Of a stretch of 35,937 bases of DNA, positions 14,222-35,937 are shown in pieces. Both the position numbers and the translations under genes were made by a program. Source of the DNA: a virus. Lineage: Duplodnaviria > Heunggongvirae > Uroviricota > Caudoviricetes. Under the pieces are notes generated by a model. The model searched no databases. It was not told where the DNA came from and saw nothing but the letters and a program-made list of their open reading frames with translations. The DNA lies in IMG/VR virus record IMGVR_UViG_2778261229_000003, positions 1 to 35,937 of that record; one strand, given 5' to 3'. Each line of letters starts with the position of its first letter. Positions within the stretch are counted from its first letter, which is position 1.

Positions 14222-14662
14222 ATGAAAAAACTAACCTTTGAAATTCGATCTCCAGCACATCAGCAAAACGCTATTCACGCAGTACAGCAAATCCTTCCAG
14301 ACCCAACCAAACCAATCGTAGTAACCATTCAGGAACGCAACCGCAGCTTAGACCAAAACAGGAAGCTATGGGCCTGCTTAGGTGACGTCTCTCGTCAGGT
14401 TGAATGGCATGGTCGCTGGCTGGATGCAGAAAGCTGGAAGTGTGTGTTTACCGCAGCATTAAAGCAGCAGGACGTTGTTCCTAACCTTGCCGGGAATGGC
14501 TTTGTGGTAATAGGCCAGTCAACCAGCAGGATGCGTGTAGGCGAATTTGCGGAGCTATTAGAGCTTATACAGGCATTCGGTACAGAGCGTGGCGTTAAGT
14601 GGTCAGACGAAGCGAGACTGGCTCTGGAGTGGAAAGCGAGATGGGGAGATCGGGCTGCATGA
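14222..14662 (+). CDS. ninB: Recombination protein NinB
   Basis: Start refined to MKKLTFEIRSPAHQQNAIHAVQQILPDPTKP..., matching lambda NinB from memory. Confidence 0.85.
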   Translation: MKKLTFEIRSPAHQQNAIHAVQQILPDPTKPIVVTIQERNRSLDQNRKLWACLGDVSRQVEWHGRWLDAESWKCVFTAALKQQDVVPNLAGNGFVVIGQSTSRMRVGEFAELLELIQAFGTERGVKWSDEARLALEWKARWGDRAA

Positions 14663-15186
14663 CTATCAAATCAAATACGCCAGCACACGACAAGGACTGC
14701 TGGCAAACGCCGCTTTGGCTTTTTGATGCACTGGATATTGAGTTTGGATTCTGGCTGGATTCGGCAGCGAGCGACAAAAATGCTCTGTGTGCTCACTGGC
14801 TAACTGAGGCCGACGACGCGCTCAATTCTGAGTGGGTAAGCCACGGTGCAATCTGGAATAACCCACCGTACAGCAATATCAGGCCGTGGGTGGAAAAAGC
14901 CGCTGAGCAGTGCATTCATCAGCGCCAGACGGTAGTGATGCTTGTGCCAGAGGATATGTCTGTCGGATGGTTCAGCAAGGCTCTGGAGAGTGTCGACGAA
15001 GTTCGCATTATCACTGATGGACGGATTAATTTTATCGAACCATCGACGGGGCTGGAGAAGAAGGGAAACAGTAAAGGCTCCATGCTGCTGATTTGGCGAC
15101 CGTTCATCAGTCCTCGGCGGATGTTTACTACCGTATCCAAAGCGGCATTGATGGCGATCGGGCAGGGCGTCAGGAGGGCGGCATGA
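14659..15186 (+). CDS. dam: Phage DNA N6-adenine methyltransferase (Dam-type)
   Basis: Start refined to [22 protein letters not shown]; catalytic NPPY motif in [10 protein letters not shown]; ATGA overlaps with ninB and ninE. Confidence 0.75.
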
Positions 15187-18234: not shown

Positions 18235-18694
18235 TCAACGTAAGGCGTTCCTCGATATGCTGGCGTGGTCAGAGGGAACAGATAACGGACGACAGAAAAC
18301 CAGAAATCATGGTTATGACGTCATTGTTGGTGGAGAGCTATTCACTGATTACTCCGATCACCCTCGCAAACTTGTCACGCTAAACCCAAAACTCAAATCA
18401 ACAGCAGCCGGACGTTACCAGCTTCTTTCCCGTTGGTGGGATGCCTACCGTAAGCAGCTTGGCCTGAAAGATTTCTCTCCGAAAAGCCAGGACGCTGTGG
18501 CATTGCAGCAGATTAAGGAACGTGGCGCTTTGCCGATGATTGATCGCGGTGATATCCGTCAGGCAATCGACCGTTGCAGCAATATCTGGGCTTCACTGCC
18601 GGGCGCTGGTTATGGTCAGTTCGAGCATAAGGCTGACAGCCTGATTGCAAAATTCAAAGAGGCTGGCGGAACGGTCAGAGAGATTGAGGTATGA
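18218..18694 (+). CDS. R: Endolysin R (lytic transglycosylase)
   Basis: 158-aa [38 protein letters not shown]... matching lambda R from memory; overlaps S end. Confidence 0.9.
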
Positions 18695-19158
18695 ACAGAG
18701 TCACCGCGATTATCTCCGCTCTGGTTATCTGCATCATCGTCTGCCTGTCATGGGCTGTTAATCATTACCGTGATAACGCCATGACCTACAAAGAGCAGCG
18801 CGATAAAAAAGTCAGTGAGCTGAAGCAGGCGACTGCCACCATTACTGACATGCAGCAGCGCCAGCGTACTGCTGATGCACTAGATGCTAAATACACGAAG
18901 GAGTTAGCTGATGCGAAAGCTGAAAATGATGCTCTTCGGCGCAAGCTTGATAATGGTGGCAGGGTGCTCGTCAAAGGAAAATGCCCTGTGCCAGCCTCAA
19001 CCGAAACCTCCCGCGCCTCCGGCATGGGCAATGATGCCACCGTCGAACTCTCTCCAGTTGCTGGACGAAACGTTCTCGGTGTCCGGGACGGAATCATCAG
19101 AGACCAGACAGCACTGAGAACGCTTCAGGAATACATCAGGACGCAATGCCTTCGATGA
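18691..19158 (+). CDS. Rz: Inner-membrane spanin Rz
   Basis: 155-aa ORF with N-terminal TM helix [20 protein letters not shown] and coiled-coil; ATGA-overlaps R. Confidence 0.85.
18911..19117 (+). CDS. Rz1: Outer-membrane lipoprotein spanin Rz1 (embedded in Rz, +1 frame)
   Basis: 68-aa ORF inside Rz with lipobox MVAGC and proline-rich segment [11 protein letters not shown]. Confidence 0.8.
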
Positions 19159-19358: not shown

Positions 19359-19542
19359 CATCTGAATTTCACAGCGCATCTCACGCGCATATTACATCAC
19401 CCGAGCCTTTCAGAAAGTTGAGCCTGAGAACTGCCGTATATGGTGGCGACCATCTCGGGGCGGCTTTTCTGTGAGACAGGCTCACTTTCTAAAAGGTAAA
19501 GACGCTATGAATCATCAATTGGCTAATCTCGATTTCCGGGAC

Positions 19543-20026
19543 ATGGTGGTTGTTTCTGGTGATCGCGTGATCACAACCTACCCGCAAGGTAGCAGCTTAC
19601 TTCGACAAGCAGCATCACCACATCATTCAGAAAATCGAAAAGCTAGACTGTTCGGATGAATTTCTAACCAGCAACTTTTCGCGGGTTACCTATGAACACA
19701 AGGGTAATCAGTATGTTGAATATGAAATTTCCAAAGACGGCGCGATGTACATCATCATGTCGTTTACCGGCAAAAAAGCTGCCGCCATCAAAGAGGCGTT
19801 TATCAAGGCATTTAATTGGATGCGTGACAGGCTGATGGAGATGGCTCGCTCATACCAAAGAGAGCACAACGAGTTAATGCTGGAGTTCATGAAGGAAAAG
19901 GATGTTGCCAGTATGTCAGGACGCTTGCTGAACCGCTGGGGCAGGATCAAAAAACCGCAACTCATAGCAAGAATCGAAAGGCTTGAGCAGCAGGCGCAAA
20001 TATCGATCCCCGGACTGCCAAAGTGA
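19543..20026 (+). pseudogene. rha: rha-family regulatory gene disrupted by a frameshift
   Basis: Frame A (MVVVSGDRVITT..., stop 19659) and frame B (from 19571: ...RKVAAYFDKQHHHIIQKIEKLDCSDEF...MYIIMSFTGKKAAAIKEAFIKAFNWM...) together form a Rha-like protein; frames differ by 1 nt near 19576-19583. Confidence 0.55.
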
Positions 20027-31079: not shown

Positions 31080-32381
31080 ATGGCTACTTGGCAACAAGGA
31101 ATCAACTCAGGCGGCTTTCTTGCTGGTATCGGTGGGCAAAACTCAAATGCGCCAAAGGCAAGTGATGTAAGTGAGGCGTTGGCCTATATTCGCCAGAACA
31201 ACGAAATGGAGCGCTCAGGTCGCAATAACATCGGCCTTCAGGCGTTGCAGGGTCTTGGTAGTGTCGCTCAAGCATATCAAGCCGCAAAGCAACAGGAAGC
31301 GGATGCTGCATTCCAAAAAGAATATGCGGCAGCCATCCAGTCCGGCGATCGACAGCAGGTTCGAAATCTGATGACCAAATATCCTGGTCAATTAGAGAAG
31401 ATTCAGTCTGGTATGAAGTGGGCAGACGAAGACCAGCGCAATTCCATCGGTACCTTAGCGGCTGGCGCACGCCTTGCGTCATCGTCTCCAGAAGCAATGC
31501 AATCATGGCTGCAAAACAACGCCAAGGAACTGACTCGCGTCGGTGTTGACCCTAATAACGTTGCTCAGATGTATCAGCAGAATCCTTCAGGATTTGGTGA
31601 GTTTGTTGATCACCTTGGAATGGCTGCTCTTGGTCCGATTGATTACTTCAATGTTCAGGACAAGATGGCTGGTCGTGAGATTGACCGAGGCAGGCTGGCA
31701 GAGACAATCCGCAGCAATCAGGCAGGAGAAGCACTAACAGCTCGAGGTCAGGACATCCAGATACGTGGACAGAACATCAGCGCACAGAATGCTGCTCTTT
31801 CCCGAGAAATACAAAGAGCAGAATTACAAGAAAAGGCTCTGGACAGACAGATAGCCAGAGAAAGCAATCAGTTAAAGCTTGAAGAGCTAAAACAGAAACA
31901 GGCAGATGTTCGGCAAAAGGCTGACATAGCCCGCGCTGACAGGCAGGCCGCCGCTCAGGGTGCAGTTGATACGTTCAGCACCGCGCTTGATTCTCTCAAC
32001 GAGATAGAGCAAAGCCCCGGCCTTTCAAAAGCAGTAGGAATTCGCTCAGCGTTTCCGACAGTTCCTGGCTCTGATGCGGCTAACTTTGAAGCAAGGCTCG
32101 ACACCTTTAAAGCTCAAACATTCCTTCCTATGGTGCAGTCCCTGAAGGGTATGGGCGCTCTTTCAGATGCAGAGGGTAAAAAATTATCCGATGCGGTTGG
32201 TGCCCTAAGCCCCAAAATGAGTGAAAAGGCTTTTCGTGACTCTATCGGAAAGATTAGAAATCAGCTTGAAAGCAAGTTGAGCACTGTTAAAAAACAGTTT
32301 GATTATCAGGAGCCAGTACAGAATACGCCAGCGCAACAACCTACTACTGGCAGTAATTTTTCTTCACTATGGGGTGATTAA
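31080..32381 (+). CDS. Ejection protein (P22 gp20-like)
   Basis: 433-aa ORF in gene 20 position, coiled-coil central region. Confidence 0.6.
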   Translation: MATWQQGINSGGFLAGIGGQNSNAPKASDVSEALAYIRQNNEMERSGRNNIGLQALQGLGSVAQAYQAAKQQEADAAFQKEYAAAIQSGDRQQVRNLMTKYPGQLEKIQSGMKWADEDQRNSIGTLAAGARLASSSPEAMQSWLQNNAKELTRVGVDPNNVAQMYQQNPSGFGEFVDHLGMAALGPIDYFNVQDKMAGREIDRGRLAETIRSNQAGEALTARGQDIQIRGQNISAQNAALSREIQRAELQEKALDRQIARESNQLKLEELKQKQADVRQKADIARADRQAAAQGAVDTFSTALDSLNEIEQSPGLSKAVGIRSAFPTVPGSDAANFEARLDTFKAQTFLPMVQSLKGMGALSDAEGKKLSDAVGALSPKMSEKAFRDSIGKIRNQLESKLSTVKKQFDYQEPVQNTPAQQPTTGSNFSSLWGD

Positions 32382-34378
32382 TGGCTAAAGCATGGAAAGA
32401 TGTTATCGCCTCTCCACAGTATCAGGCGTTAGCACCAGAACAAAAAGCGCAGGCTCAGGAGCAATACTTCAATGAAGTCGTGGCCCCGCAAGCCGGAGAA
32501 AATGCAGAGCAGGCTAAGCAAGCTTTCTATGCTGCCTATCCATTGCCATCTGTGCAGCCAGTGGATACACAGCAACCAGTAGCACAGCAACAACCACAGC
32601 AAAGTGGATTTATGTCTGATCTTGGTGAAGCCGTGAAAGAAACTGGTCGCGGACTGGTGCAGGCTGGCGTGAACGTGGCAAACATACCTGCATCAGTTGC
32701 CGATGCTGTAACAAGCGCGGCGGCTTGGGCTGGCGGTAAACTCGGAATTGGCGATGGGACATATCACCCAGCGCCACGAGTAACAACGCAGGGATTAGAG
32801 CAGGACTTTGGCCTTCAGCAAGGCGCGCTGACTCCACAAACTACAGAGGGCAGGGTATTTGCTGAGGCATTGCCTTACCTCACTCCTGCTGGCATTGAGA
32901 GAGCGGCAACACAGGCACCAACACTCGCTGGTAGAATCGCTCAGGGTGCAACTCGCCTTCTCGCTGAAAACGCAGTCGGGTCACTTGCTGCAAATAGTGC
33001 GAAAGATGATGCGGAAGCCCTCGCCACCGATTTAGGTGTTGGCGTTCTGGCAGGCGGCGCTATTAACGCTGCTGGACGTGGATTAGGTGCTGCTTATCGT
33101 GGCGTTAGTGGTGCTATTGCGCCAGAAGCGCAGCAGGCTATCAGATTTGCAGAGCGTGAAGGAGTTCCTCTGCACACCACAGACCTGTTACAGCCTACTT
33201 CCCGCGTCGGGAAAATGGCGCAGACGACAGCGGAAAATATCCCCCTGGCTGGCACAAGCGGAATGAGAGCAACGCAACAGGAAGCGAGAAGCCAGTTGGT
33301 GCAGAGATTTGCTGATAAATTCGGTGAGTATGATCCAGCTGTTGTTATTGACAGCCTTAAAGCGAAAACATCAGGAATTCGTCGTGCTGCAGGGAACCGT
33401 CTTGAGCAGGTTCAGAATGCAATGGCGGGAGTCAATATCCAGCCTGCGCGAGCAATTCAGCAGATTGATACTGAGATATCTAACCTGCAGAAGCTTGGTA
33501 AGGTTGCTGATAACGAGACTATTTCAAAACTTCAATCATATCGTGATGAACTTGTTCGCAATGCTGGTCCTGATGGTCCGGTAAATCTGGATTTGAAGCA
33601 ATTAAGCGACCTGCGCAGCCAGTTCAGAATGGACGTGAAAGGTGAGCGACCAGTGTTACCAAACCGTTCCGATGCTGCCATTCAGCGCGTTTACAAGGCA
33701 ATGACCGACGATATCAATGGTGCCATTGGTCAGAATCTTGGCAACGATACTCTCCGTAAATATCAGCAGGCCAATGCCGTCTACGCTGACGAAGCGGCGA
33801 AACTAAAGAATACCAGGCTGAAGAATGTTCTCATGAAAGGCGACCTGACGCCGGAAGTTGTCAACAACATGCTATTCAGCAAGAACAAATCGGAAATTAA
33901 GACTCTGTATAACTCAGTTGGTCGTGTTGGCAGGACGCAAATGCGCAATGGCATCATTGGAAAGGCGATGGAGAAATCTGGCGGATCCCCTGACCAGTTC
34001 CTTCGGCAGCTTAACATCCTGCAAAACCAGACTGGCATCACATTTAAGGGGCAGGACGCTGCTTATCTGAAAGGATTAAAAAACTACCTGCAATCCACGC
34101 AGCAGGCTGCAAAAGCGGCAGTAACAACACCCACAGGGCAGCAAACTATCCCGTTCATAATTGGGTATGGGACGGCAATGAACCCGGCTACAACTGGCGC
34201 AGCAGTAAGCTACGGACTTCTTACTCGCGCCTATGAGAGCGAGCCATTCAGAAATGCAATGCTACGAATGGCAAACACACAACGCGGATCGACAGCGTTT
34301 GAGAAAGCCATGCAGCAAGCGCAAAAAGCGATTAATGCACTGACGCAGGGTGCGAAGTCTGATTCGTTGTCAGAATAG
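32381..34378 (+). CDS. Ejection protein (P22 gp16-like)
   Basis: 665-aa ORF in gene 16 position, ATGA-coupled to upstream gene. Confidence 0.6.
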   Translation: MAKAWKDVIASPQYQALAPEQKAQAQEQYFNEVVAPQAGENAEQAKQAFYAAYPLPSVQPVDTQQPVAQQQPQQSGFMSDLGEAVKETGRGLVQAGVNVANIPASVADAVTSAAAWAGGKLGIGDGTYHPAPRVTTQGLEQDFGLQQGALTPQTTEGRVFAEALPYLTPAGIERAATQAPTLAGRIAQGATRLLAENAVGSLAANSAKDDAEALATDLGVGVLAGGAINAAGRGLGAAYRGVSGAIAPEAQQAIRFAEREGVPLHTTDLLQPTSRVGKMAQTTAENIPLAGTSGMRATQQEARSQLVQRFADKFGEYDPAVVIDSLKAKTSGIRRAAGNRLEQVQNAMAGVNIQPARAIQQIDTEISNLQKLGKVADNETISKLQSYRDELVRNAGPDGPVNLDLKQLSDLRSQFRMDVKGERPVLPNRSDAAIQRVYKAMTDDINGAIGQNLGNDTLRKYQQANAVYADEAAKLKNTRLKNVLMKGDLTPEVVNNMLFSKNKSEIKTLYNSVGRVGRTQMRNGIIGKAMEKSGGSPDQFLRQLNILQNQTGITFKGQDAAYLKGLKNYLQSTQQAAKAAVTTPTGQQTIPFIIGYGTAMNPATTGAAVSYGLLTRAYESEPFRNAMLRMANTQRGSTAFEKAMQQAQKAINALTQGAKSDSLSE

Positions 34379-34468: not shown

Positions 34469-34954
34469 TTATCTGATGCTACTGCTACTGTTGCATGTTA
34501 CCGTGTTTCTAAATCCTGAATTGCAGTTTGTGTAAGTGTCAACTCGTGTTGGATAGGGTTGAGTTATAACAGGCTGTCTCGCTTTTTGCTCGATCGCTTG
34601 CATTGTGTTTACAGCCTGATAATTCAATAAAGCCTGCTGGAATGCTTGGCTTTGTGCTATTTGTTGGGCTTGTTCTTGGCTTTGTAATTGAACATAAAGA
34701 TTCTGAAGCTCAAGTCTTGCCTGTGCGTCACTTATCTTGCCTTCATCGACACTTTGCCCGAGCATCTTTGCAGCAAGGACATACAGCTTAGGTGTTGGTG
34801 CTGATGCCATGCGTGAGTCGTTCTTCACACTGGCATCAAGGCAATTAGCCATATCGCTAAGCTTTTGATAGCGTTGTTCGCAACTTGCTTGATAGTCACT
34901 TACTTTTGCGCACCCAACCAGCAGAAGCGGGATAATTAACAGTGATTTTTTCAT
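34469..34954 (-). CDS. Predicted lipoprotein (moron; candidate exclusion/lysogenic-conversion protein)
   Basis: Start refined to MKKSLLIIPLLLVGCAKV (signal peptide + lipobox LVGC), AAGGAG RBS; Gln-rich middle region; same strand as and 70 nt downstream of mnt. Confidence 0.6.
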   Translation of the reverse strand: MKKSLLIIPLLLVGCAKVSDYQASCEQRYQKLSDMANCLDASVKNDSRMASAPTPKLYVLAAKMLGQSVDEGKISDAQARLELQNLYVQLQSQEQAQQIAQSQAFQQALLNYQAVNTMQAIEQKARQPVITQPYPTRVDTYTNCNSGFRNTVTCNSSSSIR

Positions 34955-35024
34955 ATGGTTAACTCTCCTTAGTTTTTCACAGGATATCATGAAGGCAATG
35001 CCATTTTAGCCGGAAACTAGATTT

Positions 35025-35291
35025 CTATGTTCCCTTTTTATTATTGCTATACATGGTCTTAAGCGTTTCAAAAACCATTTTCTTAACCATATCAGATTGT
35101 TGTTCTGCTATACGCTCTGCATCGTCAATGTAAACTGATGCAGAGCTTTGTTTAGCCAATGATTCTTCAATCGCTGCAATTATCTCTGAGTTCAGCGACC
35201 TGTTATTCATCTTCGCGCGCTGTTTAATTTTCGCGTGAAGTTCATGCGGAAGTCTCAAGTGAAACTGCGCCTCGTCGTATTTACTGTACAT
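35025..35291 (-). CDS. mnt: Mnt-like ribbon-helix-helix repressor
   Basis: Start refined to MYSKYDEAQFHLRLPHELHAKIKQRAKMNNRSLNSEIIAAIEESL...; RHH N-terminus and C-terminal DDAERIAEQQSDMVKKMVFETLK resemble P22 Mnt. Confidence 0.7.
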   Translation of the reverse strand: MYSKYDEAQFHLRLPHELHAKIKQRAKMNNRSLNSEIIAAIEESLAKQSSASVYIDDAERIAEQQSDMVKKMVFETLKTMYSNNKKGT

Positions 35292-35364
35292 CCTTGATGC
35301 CTCACCAGTTGGGTGGAATGGCATCGTAACCTACTGGATAAATACTCAATAGTACCATTTCGAT

Positions 35365-35387
35365 ATGCAATCACATCATGGTTGCAT
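35365..35387. promoter_or_regulatory. Inverted repeat, candidate operator in mnt-tailspike intergenic region
   Basis: ATGCAA-N11-TTGCAT between divergent mnt and tailspike starts. Confidence 0.3.
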
Positions 35388-35412
35388 CATATCATTCGTC
35401 TGGAGCAATGAA

Positions 35413-35937
35413 ATGTCAGATATCACCGCAAATGTTGTGGTAAGCATGCCTTCGCAACTCTTCACTATGGCGCGTTCTTTTAAAGCCGTAGCCAATGGCA
35501 AAATTTATATCGGTAAAATTGACACTGACCCGGTAAATCCTGAAAACCAGATTCAGGTTTATGTAGAGAACGAAGACGGTTCTCACATTCCTGTTTCGCA
35601 ACCAATAATCATTAACACTGCTGGATATCCGGTATATAACGGACAGATTGCCAAATTCGTAACCGTGCAAGGCCATTCTATGGCTGTATATGATGCGTAT
35701 GGTGCACAGCAGTTCTATTTTCCTAATGTTCTAAAATACGAGCCTGACCAGTTACGTCACTACGTAGATGAGCTACTGGCAGCAATACAATCAGAAATTG
35801 ATGAGATATCAGATTTTAACTGCCGATTATCTTCAAAAGAAGGTGCTAGCCTAGTTGCGACTGAAACAGGAAGAACGGTAGAGGCTTCTATTCGTGCTGC
35901 GTCTGGATCATCACAGGCCCTTTTCCCAAATTTCGTC
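35413..35937 (+). CDS. Tailspike protein, N-terminal head-binding domain (partial, continues past window end)
   Basis: [58 protein letters not shown]... matches P22 gp9 N-terminal domain; GGAG RBS; no stop before 35937. Confidence 0.9.

Follow-up and report, generated by a model that had tools for sequence, protein, structure and literature searches.

Gene content of the segment between gene 16 and the tailspike gene

We analysed the IMG/VR virus record IMGVR_UViG_2778261229_000003 (35,937 nucleotides (nt); hereafter the window, meaning this whole stretch of DNA), which is most of a P22-like (Lederbergvirus) Escherichia coli prophage, and focused on two leftward genes, encoding a homologue of the repressor Mnt and a lipoprotein, that lie between its ejection-protein genes and its tailspike gene. 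The left edge of this segment is formed by the gp16-like DNA-ejection (DNA transfer) protein gene (32381..34378, plus strand; phrog_770, 8.6e-238), whose homologue is named "lytic transglycosylase domain-containing protein" by the Prokaryotic Genome Annotation Pipeline (PGAP). It is followed on the minus strand by the lipoprotein gene (34469..34954, 161 amino acids (aa), called from its open reading frame (ORF) and ribosome-binding site (RBS) and matching phrog_6067), by the leader of that gene (34955..34993), in which comparison with the DNA upstream of P22 sieA revealed the RBS and a remnant of about 35 nt (ttcatgAtatcctgtgaaaaactaaggag), and by the mnt homologue (35025..35291, 88 aa; Pfam Arc and Repressor_Mnt, PDB 1mnt and 1qey). 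A spacer of 121 bp (35292-35412) separates mnt from the tailspike gene, the 5' part of which is encoded on the plus strand (35413..35937; Pfam Head_binding, 2.1e-67) from an ATG at 35413 preceded by the RBS GGAG (35402-35405), and which runs past the end of the window. For both leftward genes, PGAP picks identical starts in strain ZF8-1, whose prophage is 98.6% identical. The ORFs, these starts and the Head_binding match thus bear out the original prediction, made from the letters of the window, of a leftward mnt-lipoprotein pair between the ejection genes and the tailspike gene.

The region from gene 16 to the tailspike gene has been named the "ant moron" and varies more than any other part of the late operon (Villafane 2008, PMC2629481). 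Ten types were distinguished among sixteen genomes, ranging from absence (Sf6) through mnt only (ST64T, ST104) to six genes (P22, CUS-3) (PMC2629481). The two genes of the window are patchily distributed among syntenic relatives, both lie on the minus strand, and their guanine-cytosine contents (lipoprotein gene 43%, mnt 40%) fall below that of the window (48%), as expected of a moron. The segment shares with the ant moron and immI its location, a leftward mnt and a control region homologous to Pant/Pmnt/Omnt, and differs in that the partner of mnt is the lipoprotein gene rather than orf62, orf59a or hkcB. The original prediction had described the pair as an inserted module; the insertion is not an unusual one, as the module is one state of the known ant moron and is found contiguous in 106 of the 5426 complete E. 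coli genomes that served as the base for all prevalence estimates. One carrier is E. coli B7A, which is listed in the Figure 3 legend of PMC2629481 and whose prophage contains the whole mnt-lipoprotein module at 97% identity over its full length. Neither the arrangement, nor the orphan Mnt, nor the idea of the moron is new; the lipoprotein family, its exact substitution for sieA and the operator/recognition-strand series set out below appear not to have been described in searchable papers. In short, this is an ordinary locus type with an unstudied lipoprotein family.

The mnt homologue encodes a complete Mnt without Arc or Ant

The leftward mnt ORF (35025-35324) likely starts at 35291 (MYSKYDE..., 88 aa). 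Its product contains both domains of the Mnt family, namely an N-terminal ribbon-helix-helix domain (Pfam PF03869 Arc, 1.2e-14) and a C-terminal tetramerisation domain (PF11423 Repressor_Mnt, 2.5e-11). It matches the solved P22 Mnt over residues 6-78 (1mnt, 5.9e-19; also 1qey, 1.2e-6) and is 47% identical to P22 Mnt, so that its prediction as an Mnt-like ribbon-helix-helix repressor stands. Family membership is thus clear by sequence, and the classical target of Mnt, control of ant from Pant, is absent. Specifically, tblastn with P22 Arc and P22 Ant gave no match across the 35.9-kb window, and in the ZF8-1 prophage the next feature after the tailspike gene is an integrase remnant, in agreement with the earlier claim of an Mnt without arc or ant.

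We then collected two sets of loci from IMG/VR, 80 fetched via the lipoprotein and 79 via this Mnt allele (at least 87% identity), and classed them by tblastn; a scan of genome contigs for the lipoprotein had yielded five loci, and IMG/VR was a far richer source. Both arc and ant were absent at 79 of the 79 Mnt loci, nearly all of which have 121 bp between mnt and the tailspike ATG, with insertions in a few. The mnt gene and spacer occur together in 269 of the complete E. coli genomes. With a ratio of nonsynonymous to synonymous substitution rates (dN/dS) of 0.22, 60 distinct nucleotide alleles and stop codons in 0 of 118 copies, mnt is, judging from its pattern of substitution, held under purifying selection.

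In some sibling prophages (L015 3935-4664; also L022 and L094), a 179-aa ORF resembling, by eye, an HNH/AP2-type homing endonuclease sits after the first five tailspike codons (about 35413-35430 in the window) and is followed by a new tailspike 5' end, which leaves mnt 728 bp from the functional tailspike start. Separately, E. coli ZF8-1 carries an AntA/AntB-family antirepressor gene (L178 9917-13035) on a distinct integrase-bearing element beside the integrase remnant of the prophage; this element lies beyond the prophage end and outside the moron.

A conserved control region with a candidate Mnt operator

Alignment with the annotated features of P22 revealed that the 121-bp spacer is homologous to the P22 Pant/Pmnt/Omnt region. 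Seven classes were aligned (P22, window, VSe13, Gally, Brookers, Providencia and Tatumella), and the Pmnt/Pant-homologous part falls at 35318..35349 of the window. The -35 TTG and the -10 TA..AT of the leftward Pmnt are invariant in all seven classes. In the window, the Pmnt-like hexamers read TTGAGT (-35, 35344-35349, reverse complement) and TACGAT (-10, 35323-35328, reverse complement), with a spacer of 15 bp in the window class compared with 16-17 in the others; a standard scan, which allows spacers of 16-18 nt, missed this promoter because of its 15-bp spacer. The rightward Pant hexamers are degenerate in the window (ATGGCA at 35318-35323 as the -35, a 15-nt spacer and TAAATA), and the consensus scan found no rightward promoter. 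The scan did call a leftward promoter, CTGACA-17-AATGAT (35419-35391), which we rejected: it is not conserved in classes that have other tailspike-proximal segments, and its number of matches is that expected by chance.

In P22, Omnt (AGGTCCAC-G-GTGGACCT) directly follows a shared CTCAATAG motif. At the homologous position the window class has (G)TACC-ATTTC-GGTA(T), with the class consensus TACC-N5-GGTA, and the window copy itself (TACC-ATTTC-GATA, 35353..35365) departs from that consensus by one G>A change in its right half-site. The operator core co-varies with the residues of the Mnt beta-strand: the strand HFNF of P22 goes with the half-site GGTCCAC, QFNL (Gally, Brookers, Providencia) with AGACCAC, and QFHL (window, VSe13, Tatumella and a further locus, L021) with TACC or TAC (GTACCAT). 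Relative to P22 immI, the window therefore combines an Mnt of 47% identity and the strand QFHL with an operator core of TACC rather than GTCC. Moreover, in VSe13 and two related MntW-type loci the recombination junction lies directly behind GGTATG, so that the TACC-N5-GGTA palindrome travels with mnt. We consider the palindrome at 35353-35365 the best candidate for the Mnt operator, and we regard as well supported the view that Mnt would be a functional, self-contained repressor unit acting at this site.

The right half-site (35362-35365) is the most polymorphic spot of an otherwise nearly invariant spacer, with GGTA in the majority of copies, TGTA in 11 of 114, GATA in the window alone and GGCA once; this polymorphism could reflect either relaxed constraint or selection on repression strength.

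The original prediction had instead placed the operator at an inverted repeat, ATGCAA-N11-TTGCAT (ATGCAATCA-N5-TGGTTGCAT). This repeat is present at 35365..35387, within the tailspike-proximal segment and abutting the candidate palindrome; its proposed role as the primary operator was rejected, given that it has been lost in VSe13 and in the two MntW-type loci that share the Mnt N-terminus. It occurs exactly once in the window and at chance level with up to two mismatches (4 observed, 3.9 expected), and its hairpin is not unusually stable (z-score -0.45). The other exact TACC-N5-GGTA in the window (19579-19591) was considered as a remote operator and taken as chance because it lies inside the rha coding sequence; single-mismatch matches to this palindrome show a mild excess over the window (11 against 4.9 expected).

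A family of small predicted lipoproteins

The lipoprotein ORF (34469-34990, leftward) likely starts at 34954 (MKKSLLIIPLLLVGC..., 161 aa), behind the RBS AAGGAGAG. Its signal peptide, MKKSLLIIPLLLVG followed by C, has the organisation MKK-SLLIIPLL-LVGC, that is, a basic n-region, a hydrophobic h-region and the lipobox L-V-G-C. The lipobox Cys is invariant in 39 of 39 homologues and nearly invariant among 82, and the mature protein contains 21 Gln in 146 residues, which agrees with the earlier description of a Gln-rich 161-aa lipoprotein with the lipobox LVGC. Position +2 is Ala (Thr in a few homologues), and the absence of Asp there predicts Lol-dependent sorting to the outer membrane. Four further conserved Cys form two pairs (C25/C38, and C-x7-9-C near the C-terminus), as would be expected of a periplasmic protein.

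A homology search, one of the checks put forward with the original prediction, gave a relative of unknown function and no named family. The protein is matched over its full length by phrog_6067 (function unknown; 4e-108), and no family match was found in Pfam, PADLOC or NCBIfam. The close family comprises 94 clusters (90% identity) across the Enterobacterales, almost all named "hypothetical", from the genera Escherichia, Citrobacter, Serratia, Klebsiella, Cronobacter, Pectobacterium, Yersinia, Morganella, Providencia and Tatumella. Profile searching of 1.84 billion representatives extended this to 241 relatives, mostly lipoproteins of 125-140 aa that have the N-domain and the terminal Cys hairpin in common; ten sampled relatives matched no Pfam family above its threshold. 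An AlphaFold model (AF2, deep alignment; predicted local distance difference test score 88.9) is confident and comprises a small helical head, a single helix some 50 residues long (rich in Gln in this protein) and a C-terminal beta-hairpin, and fold searches against PDB and BFVD returned nothing at E<=0.001. Substitutions in the lipoprotein gene are strongly constrained (dN/dS 0.056), and frameshifts were present in two of 122 copies, which indicates at the sequence level that the gene is kept by selection and strongly conserved. It was found in 186 of the complete E. coli genomes.

The C-terminal 40 or so codons (34469-34590) exist as two alternative modules (...VITQPYPTRVDTYTNCNSGFGNTVTCNSSSNIR and ...TYIPPVQLQNNNVTTNCTTYGNQTRCQSY) on near-identical N-domains, a pattern that suggests modular exchange of a possible specificity element.

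Two separable modules

Among annotated phages, the lipoprotein is present in VSe13, Gally and vB_EcoP-720R6, and Sf101 and IME10 carry the same mnt adjoining the tailspike gene without it. In Proteus phage Brookers the gene order is conserved, and the two proteins are just 54% and 49% identical. Across the 80 lipoprotein loci, the gene adjoins gene 16 wherever the far flank is visible and recognisable, and the tailspike gene lies on its other side at 78. Homologues of 48-59% identity fill the same slot in Proteus, Providencia and Tatumella; in the first two genera gene 16 itself is in view. The neighbours within this frame vary: 40 of the 80 loci are of the window type, 18 have a Gally-type Mnt together with orf59a or a second unrelated lipoprotein gene, 18 have an ant homologue (including four with a complete P22-like mnt-arc-ant-orf59a) and three to four have no mnt. 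Conversely, the lipoprotein gene lies downstream of the Mnt allele at about half of the 79 Mnt loci, and elsewhere mnt adjoins gene 16. Each gene can thus do without the other, and the segment is, on this well-supported comparative evidence, best described as an ant-moron variant of two separable modules. Regulation of the lipoprotein by an orphan Mnt, as originally proposed, could apply at best to this particular junction, and an obligate pairing is contradicted by the separate occurrence of both genes.

The second lipoprotein gene mentioned above (L003 4209-4628, gp14 of Gally) encodes an unrelated protein of 139 aa with the lipobox LSGC (phrog_6823, function unknown); it runs rightward between the leftward lipoprotein gene and mnt, and was seen at nine of the 80 lipoprotein loci.

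Replacement of sieA and probable expression of the lipoprotein

The superinfection-exclusion protein SieA is encoded at the locus between gene 16 and the tailspike gene in 22 of 66 sequenced P22-like phages (PMC10883804). We found that the lipoprotein gene occupies the P22 sieA slot, directly after gene 16 and on the opposite strand to it. In the classes that contain orf59a, the 130 nt upstream of the lipoprotein gene are nearly identical to those in front of P22 sieA, with the annotated PsieA and the RBS among them, from which it follows that the lipoprotein has been substituted for sieA, coding sequence for coding sequence, behind shared expression signals. Slot, strand, size (161 aa compared with 164 aa for SieA) and, in these sibling prophages, upstream sequence and RBS are thus shared, and we regard it as well supported that the lipoprotein is an exported, positional replacement of sieA. 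For comparison, type B sieA of prophage HS1 was detected in 21 of the complete E. coli genomes by a near-identity search, versus 186 for the lipoprotein.

The proteins themselves are distinct. BLASTP of the lipoprotein against P22 SieA gave no alignment at E<=100 (types B and C lay outside this comparison), and the SieA motif FnRYPnEAnnFNK is absent from the lipoprotein sequence. P22 SieA is a polytopic inner-membrane protein (PMC10883804), whereas the lipoprotein has its signal peptide as the sole hydrophobic segment and a soluble helical model. With a cleavable signal peptide and a soluble body, it would therefore act from the outer-membrane or periplasmic side.

The window retains the last 35 nt or so of the sieA-type leader, within which an extended -10 (TGaTATCCT) is a possible lipoprotein promoter. 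Neither the gap behind mnt nor the stretch behind the lipoprotein gene yielded a convincing intrinsic terminator. Because only this short leader remains and no terminator is predicted in the 70-nt gap, read-through from Pmnt is the likeliest source of lipoprotein expression, and at this junction mnt and the lipoprotein gene probably share a transcript in the lysogen.

Superinfection exclusion as the leading explanation

Taken together, these findings can be explained by an ant-moron variant that would behave as an accessory cassette inside the late operon and on its opposite strand; the ant moron is thought to be expressed largely independently of the late message. The first module would be a self-contained mnt unit consisting of Mnt, the Pmnt-homologous leftward promoter and a palindromic operator of 13-17 bp, beyond which the tailspike start now lies at 48 bp because arc, ant and sar, the remainder of a complete immI (mnt-arc-ant-sar), are cleanly absent. 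Mnt most likely binds TACC-N5-GGTA as a tetramer and autoregulates its own transcript, and it would also shut off residual rightward initiation from the Pant-like sequences. The second module would be the 161-aa lipoprotein gene, in place of sieA beside gene 16. Its product is predicted to be exported, lipidated at Cys15, sorted by Ala +2 to the inner leaflet of the outer membrane and stabilised by two periplasmic disulfides. Its most likely task would be superinfection exclusion at the envelope, where it would hinder, from the periplasmic face of the outer membrane, either the use of a secondary receptor or the assembly of the ejection-protein conduit. We place about even confidence in this explanation as a whole.

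Exclusion had been proposed in the original prediction, and the lipoprotein remains a reasonable candidate for it; exclusion accounts most economically for the slot, for the shared leader and for the genomic contexts in which relatives occur, and is our best guess. With respect to these contexts, one remote homologue (L182 3127-3513) lies downstream of a helix-turn-helix repressor-like gene in a lambdoid prophage, one (L176 5497-6030) is cargo in an integrase-AlpA-primase/helicase island beside a T5orf172/MUG113 gene, and another is in a phage contig. Positions in repressor operons and as island cargo are those where defence or exclusion genes are commonly found. There is also an analogy with known proteins: Llp of T5 and Cor of phi80, N15 and HK022 are, like the protein described here, which is predicted to be anchored in the outer membrane and to face the periplasm, small phage-borne lipoproteins. 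Llp and Cor proteins block infection, their targets being FhuA and long-tailed phages. By this analogy it is plausible that a small outer-membrane lipoprotein disables an infection step at the outer membrane. Homology is a different matter, since T5 Llp (PDB 8a60) matched the lipoprotein through the signal peptide alone (E 0.49), and neither Pfam nor PHROG annotation links it to the Llp/Cor proteins.

Several points weigh against this explanation. Two remote homologues are in ordinary chromosomal neighbourhoods. In the window class, the Pmnt-like promoter has hexamers only 15 bp apart and escapes the consensus scan, and the right half-site of the window operator is mismatched (GATA) at a place that varies among relatives. 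No likeness in sequence or fold to known exclusion proteins was found in comparisons with SieA, T5 Llp, PADLOC, Pfam, PDB and BFVD, and the searchable literature gave no experiment or transcript data on the lipoprotein. Moreover, the strong purifying selection fits a host-directed function just as well. The gene models, homologies, modularity, conservation and prevalence are shown by the analysis itself; how the promoters are used, whether the two genes are co-transcribed, where the protein is located and, most of all, whether it excludes phages are matters that we infer.

A more specific version, which we advance tentatively and hold to be less probable than the general explanation, is that the lipoprotein founds a new family of exclusion proteins, anchored in the outer membrane and facing the periplasm, and that among P22-like prophages of E. 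coli it is the main functional replacement of SieA. Short-tailed phages would be kept from delivering their DNA, either because a secondary receptor in the outer membrane is masked or because the gp7/gp20/gp16 conduit is obstructed. Specificity would be set by the swappable C-terminal hairpin, and in this arrangement expression would be driven by an orphan Mnt re-purposed from the control of ant to that of a defence operon.

Alternative explanations

The alternative that survives best, which we nevertheless judge unlikely, is that the lipoprotein is a lysogenic-conversion or host-fitness factor contributing to envelope robustness or serum resistance, with Mnt merely the promoter-bearing upstream gene. 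The model here is Bor/Iss of lambda, prophage-expressed late-region morons that aid serum resistance. Like Bor, the lipoprotein is a small lipoprotein moron in the late region whose expression presumably comes from the prophage, and it is predicted to lie in the periplasm with an anchor in the outer membrane; its low dN/dS and an N-domain highly conserved across genera suggest a conserved host partner, and the chromosomal location of some remote homologues points in the same direction. However, no Pfam match to Lambda_Bor or any other family was obtained, and the architecture of the protein is larger than that of Bor and different from it, with its helical head, 50-residue helix and predicted disulfide-bonded hairpin. 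The precise replacement of sieA behind the sieA upstream region in sibling prophages, and the repressor-operon and satellite-cargo positions of remote homologues, likewise favour exclusion over host fitness, although none of these points is decisive.

A second alternative concerns the regulator, whose main role might be to tune tailspike expression, either by repressing a Pant-derived promoter or as a roadblock or modulator of late-operon read-through. The tailspike gene sits where P22 has arc, immediately beyond the Pant-homologous region and the operator, the 121-bp spacing is fixed in nearly all loci, and Brookers-type relatives retain a good Pant-like promoter (TGGACA-17-TGTATT). An influence of mnt or the moron on tailspike transcription was already raised, with a suggested role of the moron or its repressor in read-through into gene 9 (PMC2629481). 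Against this, the rightward hexamers of the window class are degenerate, with no rightward promoter called, and Sf6, which has no such moron, makes its tailspike normally (PMC2629481). As a main role we find this improbable.

Alternatively, the orphan Mnt may be an immunity factor in trans, which would repress ant of those superinfecting or co-resident P22-like phages that have a matching operator and so spare the prophage from antirepressor induction. P22 Mnt represses ant of superinfecting P22 (immI), so the activity would be the same, and mnt is maintained by selection even where no lipoprotein gene lies downstream. Nevertheless, ant accompanies this Mnt type or operator at 0 of the 79 IMG/VR loci and in none of the phage records inspected; therefore no target population is visible, and we give this role little credence as the chief one. 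Tailspike expression or trans-immunity may be a secondary function of Mnt.

That mnt is a functionless remnant of a decayed immI was a question raised for phage L, which, like ST64T, lacks arc and ant: its own poorly conserved mnt-like gene occurs without arc, ant and sieA, and a new function or a remnant was asked for (bioRxiv 10.1101/2020.10.05.325894). The loss of arc, ant and sar here and the concentration of variation in the right operator half-site would fit such a history. Yet the dN/dS of 0.22, the 60 alleles and the lack of stop codons in the 118 copies argue for a working gene, as do promoter positions and an operator conserved across seven divergent classes and two intact Mnt domains; simple decay is unlikely, and we rate it as very improbable. 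Finally, that the lipoprotein serves in the virion or in lysis, perhaps as a spanin-like protein, is barely credible: the gene lies within the late cluster and o-spanins are lipoproteins too, but it runs in the opposite direction to the late operon, many P22-like phages do without it, among them Sf101 and IME10 with the same Mnt-tailspike junction, and the window has its own Rz-like spanin (18691-19158).

These alternatives carry different implications. Should the lipoprotein exclude phages, this would partly account for why lysogens of E. coli, Shigella and Salmonella resist P22-like phages, the poorly understood ejection-protein conduit would gain a second handle, on the outer-membrane side, and catalogues of defence genes, which currently miss this family, would gain a new one. 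Should it be a fitness factor, the locus is an ordinary moron. In addition, the orphan Mnt series HFNF, QFNL and QFHL offers a natural matched set of repressors and operators for studying ribbon-helix-helix specificity.

Other features of the window

Beyond this segment, the window contains nin-region genes, a Q-type antiterminator, an Rz spanin, a tail needle and three ejection-protein genes (gp7-, gp20- and gp16-like, all upstream of the lipoprotein-mnt segment), and a protein with a Peptidase_S24 domain is probably the prophage repressor. The sole Rha-type gene, which follows the lysis genes, is a frameshifted rha (19508-20026): the N-terminal part (MNHQLANLDF...) reads to about 19585, and the rest (19745-20026) matches Phage_pRha and ORF11CD3. 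The exact TACC-N5-GGTA at 19579-19591 sits at this frameshift. In the nin region, positions 14599-15186 encode a Dam-type N6-adenine methyltransferase (Pfam PF05869, 1e-64).

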